Origin: an uncultured Ktedonobacteraceae bacterium
Lineage (GTDB): Bacteria > Chloroflexota > Ktedonobacteria > Ktedonobacterales > Ktedonobacteraceae
DNA length: 47,743 bases
Assembly (NCBI GenBank): GCA_964250365.1
Contig: CAXUGH010000006.1
Location: 2,157 to 49,899, forward strand
Direction: 5' to 3'
The notes beneath the pieces were generated by a model that saw only the letters and a list, made by a program, of their open reading frames with translations, had not been told where the DNA came from and did no database searches. Shown here in pieces: positions 9,156-33,827 of this stretch (its first letter is position 1; the number at the start of each line of letters is the position of its first letter). Made by a program: the position numbers and the translations under genes.

Positions 9156-9207
9156 ATGACCTCCGAGCATAGATTAAGCATACGCATCAAATCTATGCTA
9201 GTCGTAC

Positions 9208-10437: not shown

Positions 10438-10487
10438 CGTAATATTTCCTAGCGTACTAGAGTAGTGAAAGAACATTCCTGAAAAGT

Positions 10488-11789
10488 TTAACGTGATTTT
10501 CGAGTTACAAGCCTCTTACTCATTATTTGTGACACACGAACGACGAAACCTCTTGTTGCTACTAGTGCAGGAAGAGGATCACGCCAATCAAGATAGTCAT
10601 ATCGAGTAGGAGTGAAGAAAGAAAGAACAAAATCGAGTAGTGATTGGGCGGGAGGAGGTACTCCTGGTCTTCCCCGTTGCCGTAATGCTGCTACAGTGGT
10701 TGAGATATCGCCCTTCAAGTAACGCATCCAGTTTCCTGTATGGTAATGCTTCACACTATCAATTTCCTCCTGATTTGCCCATTGATAGAGCAGGTGAGGA
10801 AAATCTACTCCCGAACGAATTGCAATCTCAACTGAAGCAGATAATCGTGGGTTGATCTCCATAAGATATGGAATGCCTGCACTATCACGCCGAAATTCCA
10901 CTTCGGAGTAGCCTTCCAGTTCAATGGATTGTATGAGACGTTCTGCTTGCGGACCGATATCATCAGGTACAGAGATACTCTGCCTGAGAACAGATTGCCC
11001 CCCTAAGGGTGGAACTGTGCGCTTCGCCCACTGAGCAAAACGCGCATATGTTCGCCCTTGTGCATACAAGAAACTTACAGCCTCACGTCTTCCTGAGAGA
11101 AACTGCTGAAAAAGGACTGCTCCTCCTCCAAGAGACATCAATTGTTCAACTACAAGCTGAGCCTCATTCAAGGTCGTGACCAATTGCGACACCACCCTAA
11201 TACCTTGATGCTCCATCGACACCCATGACTCAATAGGCTTAATCACCGCTGGCAACCCTATTTCATTAAGAGCTTCCTTCACCTGATCCACGGAGCTTAC
11301 AACAACGCCTCGTGGAACATTCAGTCCAAGCTGCTTAGCCACGTCCAACGTCTGTTGCTTGTTTACAGCTATTGCAAGCGCCGACTCTTTCGCTATTGCA
11401 ATTCGCACACGGCGTTCGATGAGTTCGCGATGACGACGCAATAACTCAATGGTGCCATCCGAAGAGGGAATGACCACACGAACAGCATTTTTATCAAGCA
11501 TCGCTTCTAAATAAGAGAGGTAAGCGTCTGCGCCCTCGTCGGCTGGACATACATACGCTCTTTGACACCAACGGGAGGAGAAAGTAGGCGCACAATCCTT
11601 CTTTCCTAATGCAGCTATACGCAAGCCACGACTTCCTAGAGAGCGTACTGTCATAAGAGATTGCCGTAACCGCGCATCAAGTACTAACGCATCGTATGTA
11701 CTAGTGCTTGCATTAGCATCTGCGTATTCATGTTCCTCTACTATTCTTCGTTTGTCATTTTGAGAGGCTTCTCTTAATACGTTTTTCAC
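10488..11789 (-). CDS. ATP-grasp domain protein (carboxylate-amine ligase type)
   Basis: LPAVIKP, QQFLSGRRE and YLMEINPRLSASVE motifs of the ATP-grasp fold. GTG start at 11789, with a GAAGG RBS overlapping the upstream stop. Confidence 0.85.
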   Translation of the reverse strand: MKNVLREASQNDKRRIVEEHEYADANASTSTYDALVLDARLRQSLMTVRSLGSRGLRIAALGKKDCAPTFSSRWCQRAYVCPADEGADAYLSYLEAMLDKNAVRVVIPSSDGTIELLRRHRELIERRVRIAIAKESALAIAVNKQQTLDVAKQLGLNVPRGVVVSSVDQVKEALNEIGLPAVIKPIESWVSMEHQGIRVVSQLVTTLNEAQLVVEQLMSLGGGAVLFQQFLSGRREAVSFLYAQGRTYARFAQWAKRTVPPLGGQSVLRQSISVPDDIGPQAERLIQSIELEGYSEVEFRRDSAGIPYLMEINPRLSASVEIAIRSGVDFPHLLYQWANQEEIDSVKHYHTGNWMRYLKGDISTTVAALRQRGRPGVPPPAQSLLDFVLSFFTPTRYDYLDWRDPLPALVATRGFVVRVSQIMSKRLVTRKSR

Positions 11790-11792
11790 TTT

Positions 11793-12833
11793 TTACCTTC
11801 TTATTAACTTAACACGATCAAAAATGTGAAGCATACTAACTATCTTGTCTCTAATAAGCTCTATTCCTGAGGTCTTTGCTATGATGACCAACCGGTGTTG
11901 CTGAGAATCTGTAAAGATGCGCTTTAAGAGATAAGGATTCGTTTCTGAAGTGTTGTATCCCGAAATTGTCGTCAATGCGTAATCGTATCCCGCTTTTTGC
12001 ACCGCAACGATTCCACTCCTTCCAATTTGTTCAGGTTTTCCATAAGGGTAGGCAAAGTAATGTACTGGATGTTCCAATTGCTGCTCTATTATGGAGCGAG
12101 ATTCACTTACCTCTCTCTGTACCTCAATAGAGTCGGAGAGATTCGCCAGAAGCGGATGATGCATTGTATGTGCTCCAAATGAAATCCATGTACTTTTTTC
12201 CATTTGCTCTACTTGCGCCCACGTAAGTAGAGAAGTCGGTTCCTCCTTAATAACTAGTGAGGGTGGTACCGCTAGTAGCTTCCGCAAAGAGATCAAGATT
12301 TTCTCTTTTTCAGCAGTTGAGGTAGTACTACTCATAGCAGCATCGATTGCCACTGCTAAGGCTCTTCTTTGCTCCTGAATGCCTAGATGATAGACGTGTC
12401 CCCCAAATGTCACTTCGTCTACCTGAGCATGTAGGAGAAGACGATCTGCCCACCAGAAACTATTTCCCATCTCCATGTATCCTGGAATAAGGAAAATGGT
12501 CATGGGAATTTGTAACTCCTCGGCAAGCACGAAAGCGTGAGTATAGTTGTCAGAGTACCCATCGTCAAACGTAAGTACCAATCGTGGACGCCGATCTTTC
12601 CGTTGCCGCACATCTTCATTAGACAAGTACAGTTCTTTTAACGCTGTTTCCAAACTTATTACATGAAATGCGCGGCATAAGTAGAGTAGATGCTTGTGTA
12701 AGTTTCCTTCTGCACGATGATAATTGAGAATAATTAGGTATTGTCTTGAGCGTAATGTCCACCAACGGACTAGCTTTAGTAGCCCGCTGTAATAGAGACA
12801 AGCCGATAAGAGTACCTGCACTCTACTTCGCAT
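11793..12833 (-). CDS. Polysaccharide deacetylase (NodB homology / CE4)
   Basis: LTFDDGYSDNY (Asp-Asp metal/catalytic motif) and FGAHTMHHPLL. Start moved to ATG 12833 (RBS GAGGGG about 7 nt upstream), because the longer ORF overlaps the flippase gene. Confidence 0.85.
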   Translation of the reverse strand: MRSRVQVLLSACLYYSGLLKLVRWWTLRSRQYLIILNYHRAEGNLHKHLLYLCRAFHVISLETALKELYLSNEDVRQRKDRRPRLVLTFDDGYSDNYTHAFVLAEELQIPMTIFLIPGYMEMGNSFWWADRLLLHAQVDEVTFGGHVYHLGIQEQRRALAVAIDAAMSSTTSTAEKEKILISLRKLLAVPPSLVIKEEPTSLLTWAQVEQMEKSTWISFGAHTMHHPLLANLSDSIEVQREVSESRSIIEQQLEHPVHYFAYPYGKPEQIGRSGIVAVQKAGYDYALTTISGYNTSETNPYLLKRIFTDSQQHRLVIIAKTSGIELIRDKIVSMLHIFDRVKLIRR

Positions 12834-12891
12834 ATTTTTCCCCTCTATTCGCAACCATAACTCGGTTATCTTAGAAACATGTATATTGTTG

Positions 12892-14616
12892 CTATGCCTG
12901 TTTGACATGCACTTTACTTCCTTGATTGACGGTCTTACCTCTCTGTGGAAGCTTTGCAATAAGTACAAGGCATCCTGCATAAATGGCGAGAGCAACGACG
13001 TAGACAACACACACGAGAAGTAATCCCTGCGACTGTGCAAGGTAGCTACTCCCAACATAAAGCGCAACACCAATGAACAGTGCTCCAATAAAGCGTCCAA
13101 TTTCAAAAGGAATAGGATAGAGACGCTGATTTACGATATAAGCGACTGTAGCAAGCACGATGTACGCTATCAACGTTGATTCAGCAGCACCCATTCCTTT
13201 AAAAAGGGGAATCAAGATCAAGTTAACGAAGATATTGACAAGAGCAGCGATAGTCGTAAAAACAGCGGTCAACCATGTTCTACGAGTAATATTTGCCCCT
13301 GCCATAAAAACATAATACACACCATAAAATACAATAGACACTGCAACGAAAGGAATAATTGGTGCCGCTGAGTGATACTCGACCGGAAAAAGCCAGTAAA
13401 GAATTAAAGTGGCGACAAGCGAAGAACCAAACGCTGCAAAGAGCAGGAAGAGACTAAACCAGCGAAAGATAAGTTTGAAGACCTCAGTAGCGTCTTTCCG
13501 TTTGGCGACAGTAAACATCGTTGTAGGCCATGCCAGTGAGAATGGACCCATGATTACAACTGACATCGCTGAACCTAACGTGTATACGACAGCATATCGT
13601 GCTGTCTCTGTGAGCGATACAAATAGACTAAGCAAGTAGCGATCCGATAGTTGTAACACCCAGTAGGAAACAAAATTCAGCACAAGGGGCAAACCAAACG
13701 CCAGAAGTCCCTTCACCATGTTGATACGTATTTTCAAACCGGCTTTGACGATAATAATTGGAAATGTACAGATCACGATACAGGCAAAGCCACTTCCATT
13801 AGCGATAATTGAACCTGCAATTCCCCAATGTAAGACTCCGACAAGTACAATGTTGCCAAGAAGCGTGACAAGTAGATTGCTAATAGACAAGAGTGAAAAG
13901 GGTAACGGACGGTCTTGGGCGCGTAACCATGCCAGTCCTGGAAGTGTGAGATTTTGTAGTAATACAACTCCGCTTGCTAAGGCAATATACACTCCCATTG
14001 TAGCTTGACCTAATAACAAAAAGGCCAACCATGAAGATAGAGCTATCACTCCAATCATCGTAAATGATGAGGCAAGTATGAGAAGTGAGGTTACTGTCGC
14101 AACGACAGCACGACGCTCCTCTGCGGAAGTGTAATCATAGTTATATGCGCGAAAGAAAGCAGAGTATAAACCTAGCTGTGTAATACCTGAACCCAATCCA
14201 ATCATCGTGTTAATAATCGTAAGAGCACCATAGTTCGATGCAGAAAGACGATGCGTTAGAAATGGTGCAAGGACGAGTGAGATTAACGGAACAGCGACGG
14301 AGGAGAGCGCGTAGATACCGGAACTCTTGATGAGCTTGCGTATGGTGGCAATCTGTCCCTCTACAGCAGAAGATTCCCGTAACTTTTTTTCGATCTCCTT
14401 TGCCTGCTTTACTTTCACAACTGGAATAATCCAAGTTTCCATAGAGGCTATGGCGTCGATCTCCTCCGCTCCTTGGTCGTACTGTATTAACTCACCAATA
14501 TCCGAGGTAACACTAGGTTGTGGTGTTAGAGGAAGCTGAGCAAACTGATCATCTCTATCAAAGGCATCCTGCACACGCGGAAGCCTTATTGTAGCGTCGA
14601 TCTGGTCATCAAGCAT
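12892..14616 (-). CDS. Wzx-like oligosaccharide flippase (MOP superfamily) with a ~100-aa N-terminal extension
   Basis: About 12-14 hydrophobic helices starting at KLIKSSGIYALSSVAVPLISLVL. The acidic soluble N-terminus is not typical of Wzx. Confidence 0.85.
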   Translation of the reverse strand: MLDDQIDATIRLPRVQDAFDRDDQFAQLPLTPQPSVTSDIGELIQYDQGAEEIDAIASMETWIIPVVKVKQAKEIEKKLRESSAVEGQIATIRKLIKSSGIYALSSVAVPLISLVLAPFLTHRLSASNYGALTIINTMIGLGSGITQLGLYSAFFRAYNYDYTSAEERRAVVATVTSLLILASSFTMIGVIALSSWLAFLLLGQATMGVYIALASGVVLLQNLTLPGLAWLRAQDRPLPFSLLSISNLLVTLLGNIVLVGVLHWGIAGSIIANGSGFACIVICTFPIIIVKAGLKIRINMVKGLLAFGLPLVLNFVSYWVLQLSDRYLLSLFVSLTETARYAVVYTLGSAMSVVIMGPFSLAWPTTMFTVAKRKDATEVFKLIFRWFSLFLLFAAFGSSLVATLILYWLFPVEYHSAAPIIPFVAVSIVFYGVYYVFMAGANITRRTWLTAVFTTIAALVNIFVNLILIPLFKGMGAAESTLIAYIVLATVAYIVNQRLYPIPFEIGRFIGALFIGVALYVGSSYLAQSQGLLLVCVVYVVALAIYAGCLVLIAKLPQRGKTVNQGSKVHVKQA

Positions 14617-14618
14617 AT

Positions 14619-15722
14619 TTATCCCTCAGCTTTTCTATCTGCTGATTGTAGCAGCGCAATTTGAGAAGCAACAGAAGGAGTATGTAAACTCCTGGACGAC
14701 ATCTGCTTTCGTCTCTTAAGAATGCTCAAGAAAATACCACGAATTCCTGTACGCTGAAACTTGTGGTAAGCACGAGCCAAACGATTTTCGATATGATAGA
14801 GAGGAGAGTACTTATACTTTGCCCAACGTGCAGCTAGATTTGCACAATGATCACAGCCAGAATACTGAGCGAGTGCTGTGAGCAATGTAATATGCAGTGC
14901 ATGGTAGAAACGAGATGCTCTTTGCTTATAAAGCAGATCGTAGCGCGACCAGTTTCCAGTGTCGTACTGCTCGATGAGTTTATGAAAAGTTGCGAGGCTT
15001 CGTCGAATAAGTGAGTCTATTTGCGCGTCTCCAGCGACTGCGACATAATCATAGAGACCAAAGAGCGAGAGAATATATCCATTAAGTACATGTGAAGGTG
15101 GATATACAGCAAACTCTTCAAAAAATACTCCTTCCTCACCAACTGTGGTGCTAACGCCTCCATCCTTGATATCTAACTCAAAAGTAAGCACGCCACGACG
15201 AGCTGCTTGAAGAAAAACTTCATCATCCGTTAACTGATTTGCCCGTACCAATACCGAAATGACATTTCCTTGCGTTAAGGCAGAACACCAGGGGGTAGAG
15301 GCATTATAGTCAATCACAGAAAAAGGAATCGACCAGCGTCCCATCTGTTGCTCTTCATGTTCCAGAAGCCAGTGAGCTTGCGTCATGAATGCATGACTAA
15401 ACTTTTCATCTCCTGTTCTGAGATACGCATTCCAATTAGCGAGAGCGTATTGTGCAATTGTAGTAGGATGATACGCAGCAGGATATAGTCCAGTAGGCGC
15501 GTTATAAGGTACCCCCGATTCATCAAGTGTGCCATGTGGTAACGTTAGTAAAGCTTCAAAGTCCATTGGATAGGGTAAGAAACGGGAGGCATCATGCAAT
15601 ATAGACACCAAACGGTAACAAGGTTTTGCCTGCTCTTTACGCCAAAGTTGCCACTCAGCAATGAAGAAGCTAATAATAGGCAGAGTACTCCACCTGCTGT
15701 ATAAACTCATTTTCTTTCTCAC
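14619..15722 (-). CDS. D-glucuronyl C5-epimerase C-terminal-domain-like protein
   Basis: SALTQGNVISVLVRAN, FFEEFAVYPPSHVLNGYILSLFGLYDY, YDTGNWSRYDL and RWAKYKY match, from memory, the GLCE C-terminal domain (QGxAISxLVRAY, WYEEYP..VLNG..SLxGLYD, LYDTG..xYDL, RWxxY). Confidence 0.8.
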   Translation of the reverse strand: MRKKMSLYSRWSTLPIISFFIAEWQLWRKEQAKPCYRLVSILHDASRFLPYPMDFEALLTLPHGTLDESGVPYNAPTGLYPAAYHPTTIAQYALANWNAYLRTGDEKFSHAFMTQAHWLLEHEEQQMGRWSIPFSVIDYNASTPWCSALTQGNVISVLVRANQLTDDEVFLQAARRGVLTFELDIKDGGVSTTVGEEGVFFEEFAVYPPSHVLNGYILSLFGLYDYVAVAGDAQIDSLIRRSLATFHKLIEQYDTGNWSRYDLLYKQRASRFYHALHITLLTALAQYSGCDHCANLAARWAKYKYSPLYHIENRLARAYHKFQRTGIRGIFLSILKRRKQMSSRSLHTPSVASQIALLQSADRKAEG

Positions 15723-17936
15723 TTACTCCTGACTAGTCTGTTCCGCAGTTCCAATCGCTCTGGTCAAGACTCGCTTGAACACAGTAGCATTATGTTGTTG
15801 CTCAACATAATGCCTCGCTGCACGTCCCATATTGAGGCAAAGCTCCGCATCATTGATAAGGCGAGTCAGAGCATTGCTCGTTTGCTCTACATTCTCGGCA
15901 GGAACAGCAATTCCACGTCCCTCTGCAAGTAGCTTTTCATTTGATAGAGGTCGTGTTGAGGCGATAACAGCACAAGCAGATGCCATTGCCTCTAGTACCG
16001 CCATAGAAAGGCATGCGCCCCGTATGCTTGTGTAGAGGAAAATGTCGGCAATACCGAGAAGTGAGACGACATCACTTGGCGAAGTTTCTCCCCACAACGT
16101 GTAAGTATGGTCCAACTGGCGTGTATGAATATCTTCTTCTATCTGAGGACGCAGAGGTCCATCGCCTGCAATGATAACTTTCACTCTCCTACGTACCTCT
16201 TGCGAAAGTTCGGAAAGTGTTTGGCTTATTCCATTAAGGGCGATATGAATACCTTTCTCGGCAGCAAGCCTACAAGTCATAGCAATGACAATGGAATCTG
16301 CAGGAATATTGAGTTTAGCGCGTAGAAGTCTCTTTTGGTTTCCATCAAGATCAAGATAGCGGTGAGCATCAATCATACTGCCGAAGCGGGTAAAACGGCT
16401 TGAAGAGATGCCAAGACGCTTGCAAATCTCCTCTGTCCCATCGCCAGCAACTCCTGGTATTAAGTAATGATCCACAAAGCGAGCAGAGATACGCGCTAAC
16501 AGGGAGAGTGAAGGCCAATACCCGATGTAGCACAACCGTCCCCAAAGTTGACGGGGAAATGACCAATTTTTTGTCGCGAGTGCCGCTATACGCTCAGCAC
16601 GATACGACGGGTTTTTGAGCAAAGTTAGATTGCCGTGATCAATACAAACGACGCGCACTCCTGCTAGTTTCGCCACCAGTACGGAGAAAGCTGAGGTAAA
16701 GACGCCATCCTGTGGCAGAATAACCTGATATCTTTTTCCTTGATGCAAAAGTGAGGTAAGCTTCCATAAACCCGTTAAAAAGTAAAGCCACACTGCTGGA
16801 AATTGCCAAGGTCCAGTTTTTGCTGTACCGAATTTGTAGATAGTAAGATCATCTGGGTTGGGTCCAACATGTTGCGTTAAATATTCTATTTGCCATTCAG
16901 CTTTTGTTACTTGAGCAACACTCGCTAAGACTGCTCGTGTACCGCCAGTGACTGGGAAGGCATGAATAGGTACGCATACACGAAGGACTGACGCTTCTTG
17001 CGACTCAGGAAATAGTGTCGTTTGTATCCGCTTCCATAGGAGTCGAGCATGTGAGTTGTACCACTGAATACCTTTATACAATATCCTAGAGCGTCGACTA
17101 TGCTGATAGTGTTTCCAGCGAAGTGCTACTCTTGTACAATGTTCACATCCTGTACCGATTGCAAGTGCTTCAAGCAATTCCGTCTGTGCTACAAGTTGAG
17201 AAGGAGTACTCAAGTGCCGATGGAGCAGATCATAACGGGTCCAAAAACCGTTATCGAACTCATCAATAACTGCATGAAGTGTTAAGCAGCCTTTTTCAAT
17301 ACACTCCTGCACATAAACACTATCAATGATCTGTGCATAATCATAAAGCCCCTGAAGCGCGAAGAGGCTTCCTAGTAATGAATGACTTGCTGGATAAGCT
17401 GCCATCTCTTCAAAGAAGGTACCATGCTCTCCTATAGGAGTGCTTATACCTCCATCAAGAATATCTCGTTCAAAAGTGCGTACCGTTCTGTGTGCTAACG
17501 CTAAAAATGTAGCATCACCGGTACATTGATATGCTCTGACAACTACAGAAAGTACACATCCTTGCGTGGTAGCAGATAATCTGGAATTACCTTCTCTTAT
17601 CTTTTGCTGTAGAAGTACGCATAGCCATGAGCTTGCATTCTCGCCCAGAGAAACTTCGTTTTCGATGAACCATTGTGCTTGTGCTAGAAATTCGTGGCGA
17701 TGGTATGGCTCCTCAGTTATGAGGTATTGATTCCAATGAGCTAAAGCATGTAGCGCAATGAATGTTGGATCATGTTGCGATGAGGCATCATTGTAAAAAA
17801 ATCCTTTCGTATCAATGCTATCACTTTCGATAGCAAGACATAATGACAGGTTTACAGGATAACAGGACTCACGAGGAAATTTTTCGGGAGATATAGTTTG
17901 CGTATTTTTGTCGTCTTTGTTCATTTCTTTATACAT
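15723..17936 (-). CDS. Fusion protein: glucuronyl C5-epimerase-like N-domain plus GT4 glycosyltransferase C-domain
   Basis: The N-terminal half is paralogous to 14619..15722 (ATTQGCVLSVVVRAY, FFEEMAAYPASHSLLGSLFALQGLYDY, FDNGFWTRYDL, RWKHYQH). The C-terminal half has GT-B features (SMAVLEAMASACAVIAS). Confidence 0.8.
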   Translation of the reverse strand: MYKEMNKDDKNTQTISPEKFPRESCYPVNLSLCLAIESDSIDTKGFFYNDASSQHDPTFIALHALAHWNQYLITEEPYHRHEFLAQAQWFIENEVSLGENASSWLCVLLQQKIREGNSRLSATTQGCVLSVVVRAYQCTGDATFLALAHRTVRTFERDILDGGISTPIGEHGTFFEEMAAYPASHSLLGSLFALQGLYDYAQIIDSVYVQECIEKGCLTLHAVIDEFDNGFWTRYDLLHRHLSTPSQLVAQTELLEALAIGTGCEHCTRVALRWKHYQHSRRSRILYKGIQWYNSHARLLWKRIQTTLFPESQEASVLRVCVPIHAFPVTGGTRAVLASVAQVTKAEWQIEYLTQHVGPNPDDLTIYKFGTAKTGPWQFPAVWLYFLTGLWKLTSLLHQGKRYQVILPQDGVFTSAFSVLVAKLAGVRVVCIDHGNLTLLKNPSYRAERIAALATKNWSFPRQLWGRLCYIGYWPSLSLLARISARFVDHYLIPGVAGDGTEEICKRLGISSSRFTRFGSMIDAHRYLDLDGNQKRLLRAKLNIPADSIVIAMTCRLAAEKGIHIALNGISQTLSELSQEVRRRVKVIIAGDGPLRPQIEEDIHTRQLDHTYTLWGETSPSDVVSLLGIADIFLYTSIRGACLSMAVLEAMASACAVIASTRPLSNEKLLAEGRGIAVPAENVEQTSNALTRLINDAELCLNMGRAARHYVEQQHNATVFKRVLTRAIGTAEQTSQE

Positions 17937-17951: not shown

Positions 17952-19421
17952 TTAGTTCAAAGCAACGCTCGTCACATTTTTATCTTTGTTCAATGTCTTC
18001 AAGGATTTGAAAGTTCTTGTTAGAAGAGGAGATGCCACCGCTCCAAGAATTAACCAACCTGTCATCGCTAATGGAGCAAGAGTCCATCCATTGATGCTTA
18101 TACTATTAACACTTAAAGCTACAATAGCCGCGATTCCTCCTCCAACAAGAGAACGGGTTTGACTATCTGCTAAGAACCAGTTACGCAAAGCCAAACAGAA
18201 AATGAGGAGAAGGAGTGTAAGAAATAGGGCAAGGACTGGCAAGCCAGCCATTGCAGCTATCTCCAGGTAGGCGTTGTGGGGATGTGCTAATGGTACATAT
18301 TGTGCAATGACGCGATAAGGTTCTGCACGAGCGAGATAGCTAAGTAGCCCCAAGCCAATACCTGTAAGGGGAAAAGCGCGAATGACATTTACTCCAGTTT
18401 GCCATGCGGAGAGTCGTGATACTACTTCAGTTGACCCTGTCGCGTGTTGCAGTTCCAAACCGACCTGCGCTGGAAATACATAACCGATAACTACTGCTGC
18501 TACAAGAATGATGCTGAGAATTTGAAAGCGATATCGTATTTGTCCTGCCAGGAGAATAAAGGCGACAAGCCCTGCGAAAACACCAACCCAGGCTCCATTA
18601 CTAAAAATATAAAGCAATGCTGAGATTATCAAGCACATCTCCACAAAGTACAAAACTTTTGTACGGATAGATTGGCTCTCGAAGAAGAGTCCGAGAGGAA
18701 TAAAAAACATCATTGCCATAAAAGCTCCATTCCAGTTAGGGTCAAGAAAGAAAGAGCCGATACGATGAACACCTGTACCTGCTAGTTGATAATTTGATAC
18801 TTGTGCAAGCAAAGCATCATAATGTGTTGTTCCAAATAAGAGAGTTCCTGTTGTGGCCTGAATGATCGTGTGTATCGCAAGCAGCGTACCGAGAGCCGCA
18901 AGCAATTGTAGTACATATCGTAGAGTAAGAATGTTCCGTGCAATGACGGCTCCTAGCCACACTATAATGAGGGGAGCAAAAAAATCATTGAGGTAATACT
19001 CAATTCCGTCATTCCAAGTAACACCACGAGTAGCTGGAAAAATAGCTAAAGCAAGCAGCAATATCCATAGCCAGAAAGCACGAGGACCAACCCAGGGACG
19101 CTGAGGAGATCGAAATAGGAAGAAGACAAAGAGCAATACAAGCACGAGGACCAACGCCATAATTCGCAAGCCTAAGTACCAATCAAGGTAGAGATGAGCG
19201 GCAACTACGAGTACTGCTGCCAACTGATCCTGCCTCAGAGCAATAACAACAACAAATAATAGACTTCCAGCGATTGCTCCCCCGATGGCAGAGTTAAATA
19301 TTCCAAGTACGACACTCAACAATAGCGCAAATACAATTGTGACGAGAAGAAAAGGAGAGAATTGGAACAAGCTCTCACTCATTGTCTTCCAATTCCATGC
19401 CCATGCACTATTTTTTATCAT
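17952..19421 (-). CDS. O-antigen ligase/polymerase family (Wzy-like) membrane protein
   Basis: At least 10 TM helices and a Wzy_C-type loop (PLAHPHNAYLEIAAMAGLP). Confidence 0.85.
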   Translation of the reverse strand: MIKNSAWAWNWKTMSESLFQFSPFLLVTIVFALLLSVVLGIFNSAIGGAIAGSLLFVVVIALRQDQLAAVLVVAAHLYLDWYLGLRIMALVLVLVLLFVFFLFRSPQRPWVGPRAFWLWILLLALAIFPATRGVTWNDGIEYYLNDFFAPLIIVWLGAVIARNILTLRYVLQLLAALGTLLAIHTIIQATTGTLLFGTTHYDALLAQVSNYQLAGTGVHRIGSFFLDPNWNGAFMAMMFFIPLGLFFESQSIRTKVLYFVEMCLIISALLYIFSNGAWVGVFAGLVAFILLAGQIRYRFQILSIILVAAVVIGYVFPAQVGLELQHATGSTEVVSRLSAWQTGVNVIRAFPLTGIGLGLLSYLARAEPYRVIAQYVPLAHPHNAYLEIAAMAGLPVLALFLTLLLLIFCLALRNWFLADSQTRSLVGGGIAAIVALSVNSISINGWTLAPLAMTGWLILGAVASPLLTRTFKSLKTLNKDKNVTSVALN

Positions 19422-19431: not shown

Positions 19432-20181
19432 CTAAACTCGTTTGTAGCTGTTTAGTTGGACCAAATTTAAGGATTCATTATTGACAATCATTGCAGGCCA
19501 TAACTCAGTCATTTGATGGACTCGCTCTCGACCGACTATCTGAACGGCACGTTGTAAGCCGCGCACAACCGCTGGTGGGCGTTTGTATTGCCCATGTGCA
19601 TCAGAAGCAATACAATGAACTAATCCTTTTTTGAGCAAATTTTCGGCAACTTTTCGAGTTGTATTACCTTGCATTCCCACCAAACTACCAGCAGTCAATT
19701 GTGCCAGAACTCCTCTTTCAACCAAAGCGGCAAGACGGTTTGGCTCCTTCTGAAATGCTCTATAGCGCTCTGGATGAGCAATAATTGGCACTATTCCAGC
19801 CGACTGTAGCTCAAAAATTACCCGATCTGTTTCAGGAAGCCATGTACTGTTCCATAATTCAAGGAGCAAATAACGACTATTGTTGAGTGTTGCCAAGTTT
19901 CCTTTTCTAATTTCTTCTACCAATCCGGGTGTTATAAGAGCCTCATGACCTGGATAGAGACGTAGTGATATCGAGCGACGAATTAACTCCTGCTGCAAAC
20001 TCTGAATCCGTTCTTGAACTTCTGCCACCGTTCGTTGCTGAAACTCATCGTTATAGTGAGGAGTTGCAATTCCAGCATACACGCCCTCTTGTACCAGCGA
20101 TTGTGCGAGCAGAATAGACTCTTCCATCGTCTCTGGACCATCATCTACGCCATACAAGATGTGCAAATGAGTATCAATCAT
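19432..20181 (-). CDS. CpsB/CapC-type PHP-family protein-tyrosine phosphatase
   Basis: MIDTHLHILYGVDDGP, ATPH, HPERY and ASDAH metal-binding motifs. Start at ATG 20181 (AGGAG 7 nt upstream) matches family N-termini; ATG 20199 (ATGA overlap) is the alternative. Confidence 0.9.
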   Translation of the reverse strand: MIDTHLHILYGVDDGPETMEESILLAQSLVQEGVYAGIATPHYNDEFQQRTVAEVQERIQSLQQELIRRSISLRLYPGHEALITPGLVEEIRKGNLATLNNSRYLLLELWNSTWLPETDRVIFELQSAGIVPIIAHPERYRAFQKEPNRLAALVERGVLAQLTAGSLVGMQGNTTRKVAENLLKKGLVHCIASDAHGQYKRPPAVVRGLQRAVQIVGRERVHQMTELWPAMIVNNESLNLVQLNSYKRV

Positions 20182-20195
20182 AGTTCTTCTCCTTC

Positions 20196-25324: not shown

Positions 25325-26374
25325 TTACCAACTTCGCGCAATACGTTTCGCTGCATCGCCCTCTCCAAATAGGTTTTGTTTTTGTACTTGGGGCTTTGGT
25401 TTATCTACAGCACTAAGAATTGTAGGCCAATGCGTTCCTGCTAATGTATTCCAACCTGCATAGACTGTTTCAATCCATTCAGTCTCTTCGCGTAACGTTA
25501 CACATGGCACCTCAAGAAAAAATGCTTCTTTTTGCACTCCACCAGAGTCGGTGAGAATACGAAAAGCCTCTCGTTCCAGTGCCAGCATGTCGAGATAGCC
25601 AACCGGATCAATCAAATGAACATGCTTCTCCCAGATAAGGCCAGAACGTTCTAAAAAGACTCGTGTACGTGGATGCACTGGAAATATTACTGGAAGTTCC
25701 AGCCGATTTAATGCATGTGCAATCGCTTGAATCGCCTCGGAATTGTCTGTATTGGCAGCACGATGTACAGTTACTAGTATGTAGCCTTGCGATGAAACAC
25801 CCAACTTCGTTAAAATTTTCTCCGCGTGAGTGTCAATTTTAGATTGGACTTGAAGCAACATATCATACATAACGTCACCTACCATCTCGACATTTTGTGT
25901 AATTCCTTCATTGCTTAATTGTCGTCTGGCGGTTTCTACTGGACAGAACAAACGGCTGGAAACATGGTCAGTAACCACCCGATTGATCTCCTCTGGCATA
26001 GCACGGTTAAAGCTTCGGAGTCCTGCTTCAACATGTGCAACTGGAATGTGTAATTTTGTAGCTGCCAAAGCACCTGCTAGTGTAGAGTTTGTATCACCAT
26101 ACACAACTACCCAATCAGGAGACTCTTTTATCAATACTGCCTCGATTGTCTCAAGCATACGACCGGTCTGTACACCATGCGTACCGGAGCCAACGTCGAG
26201 ATGATAGTTAGGTACAGGAATATTCAGTTCATCAAAGAACTGCATAGACATGTTATAGTCGTAATGCTGTCCCGTATGAATGATAATTTCGTTGTGTCTC
26301 TGCCTTATTGCATGACTGACAGGAGCCAGTTTGATAAACTGAGGACGTGCCCCTACAATAGATGCTACCAGCAC
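25325..26374 (-). CDS. wecB: UDP-N-acetylglucosamine 2-epimerase (non-hydrolysing) family; WbpI-like by context
   Basis: IVGARPQFIKLAPV, HTGQHYD, GDTNSTLAGALAA and SGGVQKEA motifs. GTG start shares 1 nt with the upstream stop (TAGTG). Confidence 0.9.
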   Translation of the reverse strand: MLVASIVGARPQFIKLAPVSHAIRQRHNEIIIHTGQHYDYNMSMQFFDELNIPVPNYHLDVGSGTHGVQTGRMLETIEAVLIKESPDWVVVYGDTNSTLAGALAATKLHIPVAHVEAGLRSFNRAMPEEINRVVTDHVSSRLFCPVETARRQLSNEGITQNVEMVGDVMYDMLLQVQSKIDTHAEKILTKLGVSSQGYILVTVHRAANTDNSEAIQAIAHALNRLELPVIFPVHPRTRVFLERSGLIWEKHVHLIDPVGYLDMLALEREAFRILTDSGGVQKEAFFLEVPCVTLREETEWIETVYAGWNTLAGTHWPTILSAVDKPKPQVQKQNLFGEGDAAKRIARSW

Positions 26375-27792
26375 TACTTACCTTCTCCTTCTCCTTGAAA
26401 AGCCAGCGAGAGCTGCTGCATGTCTTTCTGCATTCCTATTTTTTCACTGCTGTTATTGCCAATGCTTATGTAGCGTATGCCTTGCGCTGAAACTTTTTCC
26501 TGGTTCAGTGCGCGGCGCCCGTCCAGCACTACCTTACAATGTGGAAAACGACTGAAATTCAATTCCTGGTATTTAGGATGAGCTGCTTGCAAAATAATCG
26601 CGCATATCTTGTTTTCGTACTCCGGTAGAAGTGGTGTATACCCCAATGCAGTGAGTTCTGAAGCACTAAATAGCGGATCGTCAATATAGACAGTGGCACC
26701 GTGTTCTATCAGAGCGTTTTGCAGCAACCGAGCACTTGTAAAAGCAGTTTCTCGCACGTTCCCACGATAGGCTGCTCCAAGAATGAGTACCGACTGATGC
26801 TCTAACCGATGAACAACACTTTCGATACGCTGTACGGCATATTCTGCCATTTCATCGTTAATGCGACGTGCGAGACGTGGCAGCGTAAGCGTGGGTAGTT
26901 GAGTGTCAGATATTTGCATATTTTTATCTTCGGTTCCCGCCAACAGAAAGTACGGGTAAACCGGAATGCAGTGTCCACCGACACCAACACCAGGACTATG
27001 AATGTGTGAGTAGGGTTGCGTGTTAGCAGCCATTATTGCCCGCCCGACATCGAGGCGGTGTGCATCAGCGAAACGGGCATATTCATTCGCTAGCGCGATG
27101 TTGACATCTCGGTAGGTTGTTTCAATGAGTTTGACGAACTCTGCTTCGTCCGTTGATTGCATCGTAATAATGTCGGCGTCTAACACAGATGCATAAAAAG
27201 CACTTACCGCAGCTATACTTTGCTCATTAATGCCGCCTACGACCTTGGGATAGTTCCTCAAATCGCGGAAGATCGTGCCTGAAGAGACACGCTCAGGGCT
27301 GTACGCGAGCAAGAAATCTTGGCCTGCCTGCAATCCCGATGCCTGTTCAAGAATACTCCGCAAGCGTATAGAGGTTGTACCTACCGGTAACGTCGTCTCA
27401 TAAATGACGAGCGTTTCCGGCTGTAGAGCTGTACCTACCGCTTTCGTTGCCGCATCAAGTGCTGTGAAATCCGGCTGATGAAATTCATCGACAACAACAG
27501 GCACAATCACGACAACAACTCTCGCCTGAGATATGGCCTCGGAAAAGTCTGAAGTTGCGGAAAGCATCCCTTTTTGCACGAATGCAGCAACCTCGGACTC
27601 TAGTTCCGGCTCCTCTCGTACATGCGATTGTCCTGAGTTAATGGTGGCAACTACTTGCGGATTTATATCCACACCAAGCACCTGTCGTCCATGACGGGCA
27701 TATTGCACTGCAAGTGGAAGACCTATCTTTCCCAAACCAATAACAGCAACTGGTGCAGAGGGAGAAGAAATGCTAGGCAAATTGGGTTGCAT
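26374..27792 (-). CDS. UDP-sugar 6-dehydrogenase (WbpA/WecC-like UDP-N-acetylhexosamine dehydrogenase)
   Basis: VAVIGLGKIGLPLAVQYA Rossmann motif and a catalytic Cys region GVGVGGHCIPVYP. Start ATG 27792, or 27807. Confidence 0.9.
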   Translation of the reverse strand: MQPNLPSISSPSAPVAVIGLGKIGLPLAVQYARHGRQVLGVDINPQVVATINSGQSHVREEPELESEVAAFVQKGMLSATSDFSEAISQARVVVVIVPVVVDEFHQPDFTALDAATKAVGTALQPETLVIYETTLPVGTTSIRLRSILEQASGLQAGQDFLLAYSPERVSSGTIFRDLRNYPKVVGGINEQSIAAVSAFYASVLDADIITMQSTDEAEFVKLIETTYRDVNIALANEYARFADAHRLDVGRAIMAANTQPYSHIHSPGVGVGGHCIPVYPYFLLAGTEDKNMQISDTQLPTLTLPRLARRINDEMAEYAVQRIESVVHRLEHQSVLILGAAYRGNVRETAFTSARLLQNALIEHGATVYIDDPLFSASELTALGYTPLLPEYENKICAIILQAAHPKYQELNFSRFPHCKVVLDGRRALNQEKVSAQGIRYISIGNNSSEKIGMQKDMQQLSLAFQGEGEGK

Positions 27793-28804
27793 GAACCACC
27801 TCCACATGCATATCTTGCTTCTTCTCTTGCGTTGACTCTGTAAGCTGATTCACAACTTTAAAGACGGCTAAACCTTCTTCTCCTGAGACAGTGGGAGGCG
27901 TATCCTGCCGTATGGCGGCGAAAACGTCTTCGTACTCTAAATGTAAAGGTTCAGCTTTTTGAATTTTCAGGCGAGTCATGGTGCCTTCACTCACTCCCGT
28001 AAGAGAACGCATAGCATCCCATGTGGTAAGCGTATAATCATTCTCGTAGAAATACACATCCTGTGTTAGATAGTTGACGAGGTACATTCCCTTCTCACCG
28101 GTGATAGTCAGTTCGCGCACTTTTGTTGGGGTCAACCAATTGACATCAAGCACGCCTGTTATTCTATTTGCAAAACGCAGAATGCCTATCAACAAATCTT
28201 CGTGCGTATTATGAATTTGACGTTGTGTTTCTGCATACACCTGCTGGACCTCTGAACGCGCAAGGCCAAGCATGACATCAATATCATGAGTTGCGAGATC
28301 GAGAGTTACTCCTACGTCACGGATACGAGGTGGAAATGGACCAAGACGACGCGCATGCATGTGGAAAACACGCCCTAATTCTTCGGCGGCTATGCGTTGT
28401 TTGACGGCAATAATTGCTGGATTAAAGCGTTCAACATGACCAATAGCCAACTTGACGCTCTGTGTACGTGCGATTTGTATAAGTGTAAGTGCTTCTTCTA
28501 TCGTACTCGCCATTGGCTTTTCGAGTAGCACATTGCACCCCTGGCCCATAGCGTATGCAGCGACTTCAAAATGGAGTTGTGTTGGTACGACGACTGCAAC
28601 CAGGTCGGGATGCGTCTCCTCGATCATTTGGCGATAATCTACATAGCCAGCTACGTGAAAGCGACTCATCGCATTCTTCAAGCATTGCTCATTCGTATCC
28701 GCAACACCCACAAGCTGCACGAGTTCCTCGTGAAAATTTTTCAGAACTCGTACATGGTTCATGCCCATCGAGCCTGCACCTACAATGCCAACCTTTAGCC
28801 GCAT
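27773..28804 (-). CDS. Gfo/Idh/MocA oxidoreductase (WbpB-like UDP-sugar 3-dehydrogenase candidate)
   Basis: LKVGIVGAGSMGMNHVRVL and LLEKPMA motifs. Start ATG 28804 with GGAGGA 8 nt upstream. Confidence 0.85.
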   Translation of the reverse strand: MRLKVGIVGAGSMGMNHVRVLKNFHEELVQLVGVADTNEQCLKNAMSRFHVAGYVDYRQMIEETHPDLVAVVVPTQLHFEVAAYAMGQGCNVLLEKPMASTIEEALTLIQIARTQSVKLAIGHVERFNPAIIAVKQRIAAEELGRVFHMHARRLGPFPPRIRDVGVTLDLATHDIDVMLGLARSEVQQVYAETQRQIHNTHEDLLIGILRFANRITGVLDVNWLTPTKVRELTITGEKGMYLVNYLTQDVYFYENDYTLTTWDAMRSLTGVSEGTMTRLKIQKAEPLHLEYEDVFAAIRQDTPPTVSGEEGLAVFKVVNQLTESTQEKKQDMHVEVVHATQFA

Positions 28805-28880
28805 AGAGCGCGTTCCTCCAGTGTAATAATCAGTTACTTTCATATACAAAAACTTAGAAGAAAGAATACGTTCATTTTGA

Positions 28881-29597
28881 CTAGACTCCCGTTGTGAGAA
28901 TGAAAACCTTCAGCGTCTTCAAGAGAATCAGGCAATCCAGGAAGAATGAATACGTATCAATATAGCGCATATCAAGCGGAATACGTGCTTCGTAGTGGTT
29001 ATGCCGATCCGGGCTGATTTGCCATAGACCGGTAAGCCCTGGACGTACTGTACACCTCTTCTCCACATGAGTAGTGTACAGAATGAGTTCACGTTCATGA
29101 ATGGCGCGTGGACCTACAAATGACATGTGACCGAGCAGGATATTGAAAAGCTGGGGCAATTCATCCAGATAGGTCTTACGCAGGAATTTTCCCAAAGGTG
29201 TGACGCGAGGGTCGAGTTGCAACTTCATACTTTTCCGATATTCCAGATGCAGTTCGGGATGCATCTCTAAATAAGTATCTGCGTTCGGAATCATCGTCCT
29301 GAACTTGAAAATGGTAAAAGACCGACCATGTAACCCTACCATTTCCCTAAAGTAGAGAATGGAACCACCATCATGTAACTTCACGCAAGCAGCAATAATA
29401 AGAAATACAGGAAATAGTAACACTATCCCAACAATAGAAAATACAATATCAAACACTCGTTTTATGACGAGATAGTATCGAAGAGAAGAAGGAAGAGAGA
29501 TAGCAATGCTTGTAACATTTTTATCCATTGCGCTATCTTCTGTTGCAAGAGACACCGCTGTATCTTCTTCCATGTTACTTGTGTCTACGCTGTCCAC
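28881..29597 (-). CDS. Small monotopic phosphoglycosyl transferase (bacterial sugar transferase, PglC/WbaP C-terminal-domain type)
   Basis: KRVFDIVFSIVGIVLLFPVFLII re-entrant helix, FKFRTM and DELPQLFNILLGHMSFVGPRA. GTG start with AAGGAGG 6 nt upstream. Confidence 0.9.
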   Translation of the reverse strand: MDSVDTSNMEEDTAVSLATEDSAMDKNVTSIAISLPSSLRYYLVIKRVFDIVFSIVGIVLLFPVFLIIAACVKLHDGGSILYFREMVGLHGRSFTIFKFRTMIPNADTYLEMHPELHLEYRKSMKLQLDPRVTPLGKFLRKTYLDELPQLFNILLGHMSFVGPRAIHERELILYTTHVEKRCTVRPGLTGLWQISPDRHNHYEARIPLDMRYIDTYSFFLDCLILLKTLKVFILTTGV

Positions 29598-29612: not shown

Positions 29613-30710
29613 CTAGCCGCGCAGGGTAAGTACTTCCTTTACAATCGTTGAGAGGTCTTCCGCACTTAATGCGGGATGCACAGGTAAAGATAGGACTTGT
29701 TGTGCCACGCATTCAGTCACAGAAAGCTGTGTACCATCTGTACTCAGCACGCGAAACAAATCGGGATGCTCCTGATAGAATGGCTGTCGATAAATTGGTA
29801 TTGGATAATGAACGGCGGTGCCAATTCCGCGTTCTTGTAAGGTTGCTATCCATACATTTCGTTGCTCAGGAACTCGGATCGTGTACTGATGAAAAACATG
29901 AAGGTGCCCTGGACGTACAATGGGAGTTTGCAAGAAATCGCGTAAATGACTTGTCAGAAAGTGTGCATTGGAAATACGTTTCTCTGTAAATTGCGGCAAC
30001 TTCTCAAGCTGAACAATACCTATCGCGGCCTGTATCTCCGTCATACGCAGGTTATATCCCTGTATCACCTGATGGTAACGTGACTCTTGCCCGTGATTAC
30101 GGAGGAGGCGTACATGCTCGGCAATAGCGATATCATTTGTTGTCACCATGCCGCCTTCGCCCGTTGTCATGTTTTTTGTGGCGTAGAACGAGAAGCAACC
30201 AGTACCAAAACTGCCTGTTTTCTTCCCGTCAATGGAAGCTGCATGAGCCTGACACGCATCCTCGATGAGAGATAGCGAATACGTTTCAGCCAAGTCCTCC
30301 AATGGCTTCATGTTACACGGATTGCCATAGAGATGTACCGGCATAATCGCCTTTGTACGTGATGTTAGCGCGTTCTTAACCTGAAGAGGATCGATATTGT
30401 AGGTATCTGGCTCGATATCGACAAATACTGGTGTTGCGCCTACATGAAGTATAGCGTTAGCGGTAGCAGAAAAACTGAATGCTGTAGTAATAACTTCGTC
30501 ACCAGGACCGACTCCGTGTGCGAGTAGTGCGAGAAAGAGGGCAGCCGTTCCAGAAGAGACCGCGATAGCCTCTTTCACTTGACATAGTTCTGCAAAACGT
30601 TGCTCGAACAGTGCAACATTTTGTCCTTGAGCTAGCTGACCGGATGCAAGGACGCGACGAGCTGCGTCCTCTTCTTCTATACCCAAAAGAGGTTGAGCAA
30701 TGGAAATCAC
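29613..30710 (-). CDS. DegT/DnrJ/EryC1/StrS family PLP-dependent sugar aminotransferase (WbpE-like)
   Basis: GDEVITTAFSFSATANA and FSFYATKNMTTGEGG (PLP-Lys) motifs. The GTG 30710 start gives the family-typical N-terminus (V/M)ISIAQPLLG; the ORF-track ATG 30788 would add 26 aa. Confidence 0.85.
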   Translation of the reverse strand: MISIAQPLLGIEEEDAARRVLASGQLAQGQNVALFEQRFAELCQVKEAIAVSSGTAALFLALLAHGVGPGDEVITTAFSFSATANAILHVGATPVFVDIEPDTYNIDPLQVKNALTSRTKAIMPVHLYGNPCNMKPLEDLAETYSLSLIEDACQAHAASIDGKKTGSFGTGCFSFYATKNMTTGEGGMVTTNDIAIAEHVRLLRNHGQESRYHQVIQGYNLRMTEIQAAIGIVQLEKLPQFTEKRISNAHFLTSHLRDFLQTPIVRPGHLHVFHQYTIRVPEQRNVWIATLQERGIGTAVHYPIPIYRQPFYQEHPDLFRVLSTDGTQLSVTECVAQQVLSLPVHPALSAEDLSTIVKEVLTLRG

Positions 30711-31047
30711 AGAAGTTTTTCCCCCCAGAAAATACTGTAAGTTCGTTCTTCCCGAAAAACATCTTTTATTAGAGACGTGTTTGTGCAACGAACATAGAGA
30801 ATCGAAAAGTACTACTTAAAGAACAAAAGTTACATCGTCAAATTGGCAGACTTGACGATTTTTCTCTTTCCATAGTGAAACACAACACATTGGGGGGGTA
30901 ATGCATCATGCAGCGTTACGTTCGACAAAAGGTCGTATCAGAAATGTGTAGGGATAAGCAGGAAATTCCACGTTCCCCAACGCGGATGCCTGGCTAAGTA
31001 ATTGTCCACTTCTAATCCTATTCATGACCATATTTCAATACGTAAAT

Positions 31048-31208: not shown

Positions 31209-31805
31209 ATGAGCAATAATTTCTACATCCATCCAACGGCGGAGGTATCCACACAAGCACATATAGGGTCAGGCACACGTATCTGGCGACAGGTACATGT
31301 ACGAGATGGAGCGCAGATTGGAGAAGAATGCAATATCGGTGGTGGTGTCTACATTGACGTACATGTGCAGATTGGTTCGCGCGTCAAGATTCAGAATAAC
31401 ACCTCGGTTTTTGAGGGTGTGACAATTGAGGACGGTGTGTTCGTTGGACCTCATGTCTGCTTTACCAATGACCTGCTACCACGAGCAATTACACCTGACG
31501 GTAGGCTCAAGGCTGCAACAGATTGGCAGGTTACGCCAACACTCGTTCAGTATGGTGCCTCCATTGGAGCTGGCTCAGTTATTGTTTGCGGTGTGACAAT
31601 AGGCACATTCGCCCTAGTTGGAGCAGGCTCTGTGGTAACAAAGGATGTACCACCGCACGCACTTATGTTCGGAAATCCTGCGCGATTGCATAGCTATGTC
31701 TGTCGCTGTGCGCGTCGATTGTCCAACATCCATGAAGAAGGAAAGGCACTTGTTGGAGAGTGCGAGACATGCAGTAAGCACTATTCGCTCAAGGAGAATT
31801 ATTGA
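31209..31805 (+). CDS. Hexapeptide-repeat (left-handed beta-helix) N-acetyltransferase, WbpD-like
   Basis: [20 protein letters not shown]...[22 protein letters not shown]...[34 protein letters not shown] aligns, from memory, with P. aeruginosa WbpD. Has a C-terminal Cys pair region (CRC...CETC). Confidence 0.9.
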
Positions 31806-32877: not shown

Positions 32878-32905
32878 AAGAAAACTCCTTCCATTGGTTG
32901 CGAAA

Positions 32906-33766: not shown

Positions 33767-33827
33767 AATTTTTCTCCTTTAGTGAAGCCAATGAACAAGA
33801 TGGTAAAAAAAAGAGTACTGCCAAACG

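Follow-up and report, generated by a model that had tools for sequence, protein, structure and literature searches.

A candidate GLCE-family C5-epimerase and a degenerate epimerase domain fused to a GT4 glycosyltransferase in a Wzx/Wzy polysaccharide locus of Ktedonobacteria

What does a bacterial polysaccharide locus do with two copies of a domain related to animal heparan sulfate glucuronyl C5-epimerase (GLCE), one of them fused to a glycosyltransferase (GT)? The question is raised by two adjacent open reading frames (ORFs) in a 47,743-nt stretch of DNA (the window) from an uncultured Ktedonobacteraceae bacterium (assembly GCA_964250365.1, contig CAXUGH010000006.1, positions 2,157 to 49,899). 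ORF1 (14619..15722) and ORF2 (15723-17936) lie where a first-pass annotation had placed them; it gave no strand, and both are on the minus strand. That annotation read the pair as two C5-epimerases, one of them physically coupled to glycosyl transfer. We find that ORF1 is a credible epimerase, judged by its residues, while the N-terminal domain of ORF2 is a degenerate member of the same family that is under purifying selection and still in use. No new kind of system is involved: the pair belongs to a known enzyme family, as an unusual variant. What the analysis chiefly adds is the distinction between a free copy predicted to be catalytic and a fused pseudo-enzyme, together with a series of gene architectures that documents this distinction.

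ORF1 and the N-terminal ∼300 amino acids (aa) of ORF2 are indeed paralogues: four shared motifs can be read in the two translations, and BLASTP aligns the proteins with 39% identity over 259 aa (E 7e-59). Both match the Pfam family PF06662 (C5-epim_C, gathering cut-off 23.3 bits), ORF1 at aa 126-301 (E 2.4e-43, 148 bits) and ORF2 at aa 120-275 (E 2.1e-25, 89.7 bits). The GLCE motifs that the first-pass annotation had named (QGQAISTLVRAY, WYEEYP, VLNG, SLIGLYD, YDTG..IYDL and RWKSY) are all present in the aligned human GLCE chain 6HZZ. Among sequences in the PDB, ORF1 matches human GLCE (6HZZ, E 3.5e-22) and also zebrafish GLCE. The AlphaFold2 (AF2) model of ORF1 has a predicted local distance difference test score (pLDDT) of 87, and its top Foldseek matches are the GLCE entries 6I01, 6HZZ and 4PW2 (E ∼6e-13, root-mean-square deviation (rmsd) 2.8 Å over 218 columns), with the alpha-helical toroid superposing on the GLCE catalytic domain. 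ORF1 consists of this helical domain only. The three-domain layout of the animal enzyme is absent, the alignments spanning only GLCE chain residues ∼313-518 with ∼110 aa preceding the domain.

The fusion of the second copy to a GT-B transferase of family GT4 was confirmed as well. ORF2 matches Glycos_transf_1 (PF00534) at aa 536-709 (E 1.1e-23, 84 bits, cut-off 26.4) and Glyco_trans_1_4 (E 5.9e-19), and its C-terminal 420 residues are modeled as a full GT-B fold, for which Foldseek returned BshA, HepE, MshA and PimB' (TM(target) ∼0.8, ∼430 columns). The gene thus named as a PF06662-GT4 fusion carries the GLCE-like domain at aa ∼50-290 (17067..17789, minus strand) and the glycosyltransferase at aa ∼315-725 (15762..16994, minus strand). 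The zero gap between the two genes, reported initially, holds only if ORF1 starts at the GTG at 15722. The ATG at 15710 is the likelier start: the consensus of the homologues opens with MS.., and the gene was called at 363 aa in the database. From this start the protein has that same length, and 12 nt separate the gene from the TAA stop of ORF2.

To compare catalytic residues, we aligned a GLCE fragment with 120 stand-alone homologues and with the N-terminal 330 aa of 120 fusion homologues. GLCE numbering was set by the wild-type and Y578F human GLCE entries (chain index + 90). The key catalytic residues of GLCE are E499, Y500, N510, Y560 and Y578 (PMC13308652). Stand-alone proteins keep N510, Y560, Y578 and H582 without exception (120/120 each), E499 in 119 of 120 and H579 in 117. 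The fused domains have Tyr578 in none of 120 (H, Q, E or D instead), N510 in 11 of 120 (mostly S), mostly S, T or A at 560, L at 579 (104) and Q at 582 (107); only E499 is largely retained (E in 109, D in 8). At position 500 a valine prevails among the stand-alone proteins (112/120; F in ORF1), and V, I or M among the fused ones. The same division into intact and degenerate copies is seen locus by locus in the residue signatures. ORF1 keeps E499, N510, Y560, Y578, H579 and H582 (its Y261 and Y273 correspond to Tyr560 and Tyr578) and has Phe at position 500, whereas ORF2 reads E, M, L, Y, Q, L and Q at 499, 500, 510, 560, 578, 579 and 582, with E498 also kept, and is without three of the five key residues. 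Loss of catalytic residues, the outcome that the first-pass annotation had itself named beforehand as speaking against its reading, was found for ORF2 and not for ORF1. The claim of two epimerases therefore fails at the fused copy, with Leu at 510, Q/L/Q at 578/579/582, and Tyr578 absent from all 120 of its fused homologues.

The replacement of Tyr500 in ORF1 has many parallels. Among 89 complete short stand-alone representatives from the whole family, 42 show the pattern E-x-N-Y-Y and 36 the pattern E-Y-N-Y-Y; all five key residues are kept in the homologues from Geoglobus (an archaeon) and Balneolaceae. The absence of Tyr500 is thus probably tolerated. We also considered whether Tyr500 is made up for by the tyrosine that corresponds to GLCE position 503 and belongs to the conserved YPxxH motif, and discarded this idea since the intact stand-alone proteins of two related loci (L082 and L083) have Glu there. 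Given the residue patterns across both families and the wide absence of Tyr500, ORF1 is a credible epimerase, predicted to be catalytically competent, and the ORF2 domain is not; homologous to PF06662 as the latter is on sequence grounds, it should not be filed as an epimerase.

Could both domains still be active, the fused copy using other catalytic residues to serve two epimerised positions or two substrates? ORF2 does keep Glu498/Glu499 and Tyr560, and its domain is under purifying selection. Yet it has none of Tyr578, His579, His582 and Asn510, and the residues that replace catalytic ones vary among the fused homologues (H/Q/E/D at 578, S/T/A at 560), unlike those of a conserved alternative active site. 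Among the readings weighed here we hold this one to be the least probable.

Loss of catalysis does not mean loss of use. In four close locus pairs, the ratio of non-synonymous to synonymous substitution rates (dN/dS) is 0.11-0.38 for the degenerate domain and 0.08-0.21 for the attached GT domain, and many residues of the degenerate domain are invariant across 21 fusion proteins. On both counts we rejected the idea that the domain is decaying junk. In the AF2 model of ORF2 the N-terminal domain is helical, with pLDDT <50 at aa 159-186, the loop carrying the EE motif.

How widespread is this arrangement? PF06662 homologues account for 4,387 of 1.84 billion representative clusters (E ≤ 1e-3), and a paper of June 2026 gives only a single bacterial enzyme of the family as identified (PMC13308652); the initial remark on the scarcity of bacterial homologues, and of characterised ones among them, holds. 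The proposed survey for the fusion in other genomes gave at least 365 fusion homologues. Each of the 120 top-ranking ones is a full-length PF06662+GT4 protein, and the named ones are labelled Ktedonobacteraceae. Full-length matches to the fusion come only from metagenome-assembled genomes of Ktedonobacteria/Chloroflexota and from Dictyobacter kobayashii, the remaining matches covering the GT4 domain only. The genome scan used two peptide patterns and one genome per species and listed 80 loci, so that the fusion with an N-terminal epimerase domain may also occur outside Ktedonobacteria. At least 15 contig-length matches connect the lists of stand-alone and fused homologues.

The loci fall into several architectures. 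In the first, an intact epimerase is fused to the same GT with no free copy (L017, L020 and the representative proteins P0242, P0243 and P0246); these intact fusions are rarer, more divergent relatives. In the second, to which the window belongs with L003, L027, L082 and L083, a degenerate fusion is accompanied by an intact free copy; in L082 (the cultured Dictyobacter halimunensis) and L083 the two lie ∼4-5.5 kb apart. The third, a degenerate fusion alone within ±10 kb, is found in the majority of loci. In the fourth, the GT has no epimerase-like domain (L014, L028), and in L019 such a GT is followed by an intact free copy. A strict pairing, in which a dead fusion would always come with a free epimerase, had to be dropped given the prevalence of the third architecture. 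The coupling of epimerase and transfer proposed by the first-pass annotation thus stands in an evolutionary sense, in the intact fusions of the first architecture, and does not stand for the ORF2 copy, which is degenerate. In a neighbour-joining tree all the Ktedonobacterial domains form one clade and the intact copies, free or fused, cluster together; the tree is crude and prone to long-branch effects, and was used for these two statements only. The simplest order of events is that an active epimerase was fused to this GT and then duplicated, after which the fused copy degenerated and the free copy was often lost.

Some loci do not fit these types neatly. In L026 a 579-aa protein downstream of Wzx (14260-15996) combines an intact epimerase signature with a C-terminal part that is weakly GT-like, and a very divergent degenerate fusion lies upstream, making a further architecture. 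The representative P0247 resembles this protein, with an intact epimerase followed by only the C-terminal half of a GT4 (578 aa). The fusion gene is split into at least two overlapping ORFs in L024 (10076-12129, Dictyobacter kobayashii) and L027 (9962-12205); these splits reflect either frameshifts or assembly errors, or an ongoing pseudogenisation of the fusion.

If the fused domain is no longer an enzyme, what is it kept for? One answer is that it mainly docks ORF1 as a pseudo-homodimer, tethering the epimerase to the GT and channelling the intermediate. Paralogues often retain interfaces and animal GLCE is a dimer (PMC13308652), intact and degenerate copies share a locus in the window and in the four other loci of the second architecture, and the intact fusions L017 and L020 show that linkage of epimerase and GT is selectively useful. 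On the other side, the degenerate domain is under purifying selection in most loci without a stand-alone partner nearby. As most loci have no stand-alone epimerase within 10 kb, docking of ORF1 is not the general reason for keeping the dead domain, and we consider it unlikely as the main role. Binding of the acceptor ranks above pure docking, because the dead domain is kept with or without a free epimerase nearby; both roles may apply in loci of the second architecture such as the window.

Beyond Ktedonobacteria-type fusions, the intact PF06662 domain is joined to Wzy (P0241), to Wzx (P0317), to a GT4 followed by Wzx (P0244) and, in reverse order, to a preceding GT4 (P0291). Other intact fusions carry three CWB2 cell-wall-binding repeats (P0298), PKD domains (P0372), or a polysaccharide deacetylase and an F5/8 type C domain (P0379). 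Since the intact domain is fused to several assembly partners across the family, coupling of the epimerase to assembly machinery is a recurrent theme. The deacetylase-epimerase fusion P0379 recalls the N-deacetylation and epimerisation logic of heparan sulfate.

On which sugar, then, would ORF1 act? ORF1 and ORF2 belong to a Wzx/Wzy-dependent heteropolysaccharide locus, all of whose genes named here are on the minus strand unless noted. A Wzy-type polymerase lies directly upstream of ORF2 (17952..19421; PF04932 Wzy_C, E 1.5e-18, ∼10 hydrophobic segments) and a Wzx-type flippase directly downstream of ORF1 (12892..14616; PF01943 Polysacc_synt, E 1.9e-07). Upstream of Wzy, domain searches identified a CpsB/CapC phosphatase (19432-20199), a DUF4012 protein (20196-22196), a Wzz/P-loop tyrosine-kinase-like protein (22205-23935) and a GT4 (24009-25280), all in an order kept in relatives. 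The initiating polyprenyl-phosphate sugar-phosphate transferase is encoded at 28881..29597 (PF02397 Bac_transf, E 5.5e-59). According to profile searches, the Wzx/Wzy-dependent assembly set is complete in the window (Bac_transf, Polysacc_synt, Wzy_C, Wzz with P-loop, and CpsB). Two more GT4s, also kept downstream of Wzx in relatives, were found by domain search at 9208-10476 and 8148-9170. In related loci the gene order runs from sugar-nucleotide genes through a GT4, a phosphoglycosyltransferase, Wzz/kinase, DUF4012 with CpsB, Wzy, a GT and the stand-alone epimerase to Wzx and further GT4s; this Wzx/Wzy-type order is kept in 28 loci with conserved Wzy and Wzx neighbours, the DUF4012/CpsB genes and the stand-alone epimerase being absent from some of them.

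All five enzyme classes of the uridine diphosphate (UDP)-2,3-diacetamido-2,3-dideoxy-hexuronic acid pathway are encoded in the window, at the level of family. They are a non-hydrolysing UDP-GlcNAc(-type) 2-epimerase similar to WecB/WbpI (25325..26374; PF02350, E 6.6e-108; TIGR00236 wecB, 325.7 bits, cut-off 210), a nucleotide-sugar 6-dehydrogenase (26374..27807; UDPG_MGDP_dh N-terminal, central and C-terminal domains; TIGR03026, 326 bits, over the cut-off), a GFO/IDH/MocA oxidoreductase similar to UDP-GlcNAc 3-dehydrogenase (27773..28849; NF040723, E 2.2e-94, under the equivalog cut-off; PDB 7BVJ, E 8e-26), a DegT-family sugar aminotransferase similar to WbpE among others (29613..30788; PF01041, E 7.5e-125; PDB matches including WbpE, E ∼1e-66) and a hexapeptide-repeat sugar N-acetyltransferase similar to WlbB/WbpD (31209..31805, plus strand; Hexapep). 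The best PDB match of the last enzyme is 3MQG, a ‘lipopolysaccharides biosynthesis acetyltransferase’ (E 4.2e-42), which we take to be WlbB of the pathway to 2,3-diacetamido-2,3-dideoxy-mannuronic acid (ManNAc3NAcA). Among the five, only WecB reaches its NCBIfam equivalog cut-off. The 6-dehydrogenase is the only uronic-acid-forming enzyme seen in the window, and it scores 271 and 212 bits with the NCBIfam models of UDP-ManNAc dehydrogenase vs 122 and 108 bits with those of UDP-glucose dehydrogenase, which places it nearer to the UDP-ManNAc/UDP-GlcNAc dehydrogenases. Judged from these gene families, the cluster probably makes an N-acetyl-hexosaminuronic acid (HexNAcA) of the 2,3-diacetamido type. 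Because the five enzyme classes of the UDP-ManNAc3NAcA pathway are encoded, the reaction of ORF1 is likely to be the conversion of D-configured N-acetylmannosaminuronic acid (ManNAcA) or D-ManNAc3NAcA to the L-gulo epimer, or the gluco-to-ido equivalent.

The first-pass annotation had left a choice between ManNAc3NAcA to L-GulNAc3NAcA and glucuronic acid (GlcA) to iduronic acid (IdoA), and had pointed to a glycosaminoglycan (GAG)-like or guluronate-type product; the former reaction fits the locus better than the latter. A GAG-like GlcA/IdoA polymer is suggested by the name of the family, by automatic ‘heparosan-N-sulfate-glucuronate 5-epimerase’ labels and by the presence of a polysaccharide deacetylase. 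Against it, Pfam and NCBIfam domain searches of the window revealed neither a UDP-glucose dehydrogenase-type enzyme nor a GAG synthase nor a sulfotransferase, and the locus, with its four GT4s, is of the Wzx/Wzy repeat-unit kind. Such a product is highly unlikely, and that part of the initial interpretation we abandon. Public annotation of these proteins is automatic only, the fusions being named ‘D-glucuronyl C5-epimerase family protein’ and the stand-alone proteins ‘heparosan-N-sulfate-glucuronate 5-epimerase’; the latter label, a JGI one, is over-specific for these homologues.

L-configured N-acetyl-gulosaminuronic acid (L-GulNAcA) occurs in bacterial and archaeal glycopolymers (PMC3210612). 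A literature search on L-GulNAc3NAcA returned nothing, a broader one yielding only this occurrence of L-GulNAcA, and no described biosynthetic C5-epimerase for L-gulo N-acetylated hexosaminuronic acids turned up in our literature searches.

At what stage of assembly would the epimerisation take place? In a hydropathy scan, neither ORF1 nor ORF2 showed a membrane segment at the N-terminus or anything resembling a signal peptide. The cytoplasmic face is where the GT4 enzymes of Wzy pathways work. We favour action of ORF1 in the cytoplasm on the repeat unit linked to undecaprenyl diphosphate, since signal and membrane segments are absent, the GT4s are cytoplasmic and the intact fusions would place the epimerase there. 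Extracellular epimerisation of the finished polymer, as by alginate AlgG/AlgE or Golgi GLCE, has precedents within the family: some members are clearly extracytoplasmic (the CWB2 fusion P0298 and the PKD fusion P0372), and signal peptides were predicted in many prokaryotic candidates by Raedts 2011 (PMC3068255). But close relatives of ORF1 and ORF2 fuse the intact domain to a cytoplasmic-type GT4, and with no export-type segment in either protein we regard this route as very unlikely.

Epimerisation of a nucleotide sugar before transfer, e.g. UDP-ManNAc3NAcA to the UDP-L-gulo sugar, would also be cytoplasmic. By hydropathy ORF1 is soluble and located where UDP-sugars are, and the same question is stated as open for the unrelated archaeal protein Agl32 (PMC12624080). 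The characterised enzymes of the GLCE family, on the other hand, all act within a chain with flanking sugars (PMC13308652, PMC12624080). That the domain has repeatedly been fused to Wzy, Wzx and GTs speaks for the lipid-linked or polymer stage, and the ORF1 gene lies between Wzy and Wzx rather than among the sugar-nucleotide genes. The nucleotide-sugar route is, in our estimate, quite improbable.

These results can be joined in one explanation, to which we give a little better than an even chance: ORF1 epimerises a lipid-linked HexNAcA, and the GT of ORF2 uses the dead domain as a binding or docking module. ORF1 would remove and re-add the C5 proton of a hexuronic acid already present on the undecaprenyl-diphosphate-linked repeat unit, turning a D-configured sugar of the ManNAcA/ManNAc3NAcA type into an L-configured one of the L-GulNAcA/L-GulNAc3NAcA type. 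The GT4 of ORF2 would act at the same step of repeat-unit assembly, and its N-terminal domain, an epimerase descendant without the acid/base tyrosines, may bind the acceptor bearing the uronic acid and possibly dock ORF1. C5 epimerisation being reversible, an attached GT that glycosylates at or next to the epimerised residue would commit the product. The frequent linkage of epimerase and GT would be explained in this way, because a GT recognising the epimerised acceptor would commit the product.

Several points weigh against this explanation. Only four of the five listed GLCE residues are present in ORF1, Tyr500 being replaced by Phe, and ORF2 keeps Tyr560 and Glu499, which is unusual for the fused family and makes residual or altered chemistry possible. 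The localisation of both proteins rests on a hydropathy scan, a crude test. The assays of animal GLCE and of the Bermanella enzyme (see below) used long polymers as substrate rather than lipid-linked oligosaccharides. The prevalence of loci with the degenerate fusion alone tells against the docking part. Finally, loci that have no intact epimerase (L009, L011, L015, L024 and L028) carry the pathway genes too; these genes are thus compatible with the proposed substrate, not diagnostic of it; the epimerase therefore resembles an optional tailoring step.

A bolder scenario, which we offer as tentative, is that the loci record the birth of a pseudo-enzyme: an intact fusion gave rise to a free duplicate, the fused copy died and the free copy was lost in many lineages, leaving the dead domain as a module for acceptor recognition and docking whose complex with the free paralogue would capture a thermodynamically unfavoured L-diacetamido-uronic acid on the lipid carrier. 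If true, the GLCE family would gain its first enzyme shown to use a non-glucuronate substrate and to work on a lipid-linked repeat unit. The cultured Dictyobacter strains differ in architecture and make the hypothesis directly testable. For the study of pseudo-enzymes the loci supply a series running from the intact fusion through the dead fusion with a free enzyme and the dead fusion alone to the GT alone. The ORF1 clade offers the heparan epimerase in a compact, soluble, single-domain form that is attractive for enzymology and chemo-enzymatic glycan synthesis, with N-acetylated, possibly 2,3-diacetamido, hexosaminuronic acids as a probable new substrate class. The over-specific automatic annotation of the fusion and stand-alone proteins is corrected as well.

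Other genes in the window deserve mention. Downstream of Wzx, domain searches found an ATP-grasp ligase (10488-11789) and the polysaccharide deacetylase (11793-13106), both on the minus strand; the deacetylase ORF is extended to a TTG start and overlaps Wzx by 215 nt, so its listed extent is probably too long. The pair (10488-13106) also occurs in L025 and the deacetylase in L003, which suggests an amidated uronic acid carboxylate and/or an N-deacetylated repeat unit. Two N,N-dimethylformamidase-beta-like (DMFA2_C) proteins lie at the edge of the cluster (2606-4165, plus strand, and 6556-8151, minus strand; E ∼1e-103 to 1e-107), and homologues stand beside the same cluster in L006, L016, L017 and L023. 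On the other side, a QatC-like protein (35877-38585, minus strand; PADLOC PDLC02214, E 1.9e-44, with a weak QueC match) adjoins a regulator with helix-turn-helix and Peptidase_M78 domains (RmrA/CapP-like), with neighbours at 32011-35884 and 38594-39271. The ORFs around the QatC-like gene have no Pfam or PADLOC match, and QatA, QatB and QatD were not recognised among them; the region may be a Qat-like anti-phage defence island. The G+C content is 0.50-0.52 at 40001-46000 vs ∼0.44 in the polysaccharide cluster, and the genes there (MFS transporter, transglutaminase-like, anti-sigma-K RskA-like and Peptidase_S58 proteins) are unrelated to the cluster.

How does the pair compare with known systems? 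Our literature searches found no publication on the Ktedonobacterial clade, on the fusion of the epimerase with a GT4 or on the degeneracy of this fusion, and a search on Ktedonobacteria exopolysaccharide gave nothing relevant. The closest structural counterpart is animal GLCE (human 6HZZ/6I01, zebrafish 4PW2), whose C-terminal alpha-helical catalytic domain is homologous to ORF1 with 28-29% identity at the rmsd given above. The animal enzyme differs in its N-terminal beta-hairpin dimerisation element, beta-sandwich domains and membrane anchor, all absent from the 363-367 aa of ORF1. Its substrate is a polymer of GlcA and N-sulfoglucosamine, whereas ORF1 is encoded in a bacterial Wzx/Wzy locus whose uronic acids are of the HexNAc type.

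Among bacterial members of the family, the D-glucuronyl C5-epimerase of Bermanella marisrubri RED65 (Raedts et al. 2013) is the only one with shown activity, characterised on a heparin-derived substrate only (PMC13308652). Like ORF1, it is a bacterial PF06662 protein encoded among polysaccharide genes, with a presumed chain-bound uronic acid as substrate. Unlike the ORF1/ORF2 pair, it comes from another phylum, stands alone and was assayed on O-desulfated heparin. To our knowledge, neither a fusion nor a paralogous pseudo-enzyme has been reported in its case.

Agl32 of Halobacterium salinarum is a C5-epimerase proposed to act on a short lipid-linked oligosaccharide at the cytoplasmic face before flipping (PMC12624080, PMC13308652), as we suppose for ORF1. 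The similarity is one of analogy and not of homology: Agl32 is AGE/cellobiose-2-epimerase-like, has no GLCE catalytic residues and is missed by BLAST with GLCE. We considered it as the closest prokaryotic relative and set it aside on account of its different fold family and residues, keeping the functional analogy only.

The described UDP-ManNAc3NAcA pathways, WbpA/B/E/D/I of Pseudomonas, WlbA-D of Bordetella and their archaeal counterpart, include no C5-epimerase that we know of; the window holds one member of each of their five enzyme classes. The alginate epimerases AlgG and AlgE convert D-manno to L-gulo uronic acid at C5 on the polymer, with a beta-helix fold and in the periplasm or outside the cell. 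This is the chemistry that we propose for ORF1, carried out by an unrelated fold on unsubstituted mannuronan.

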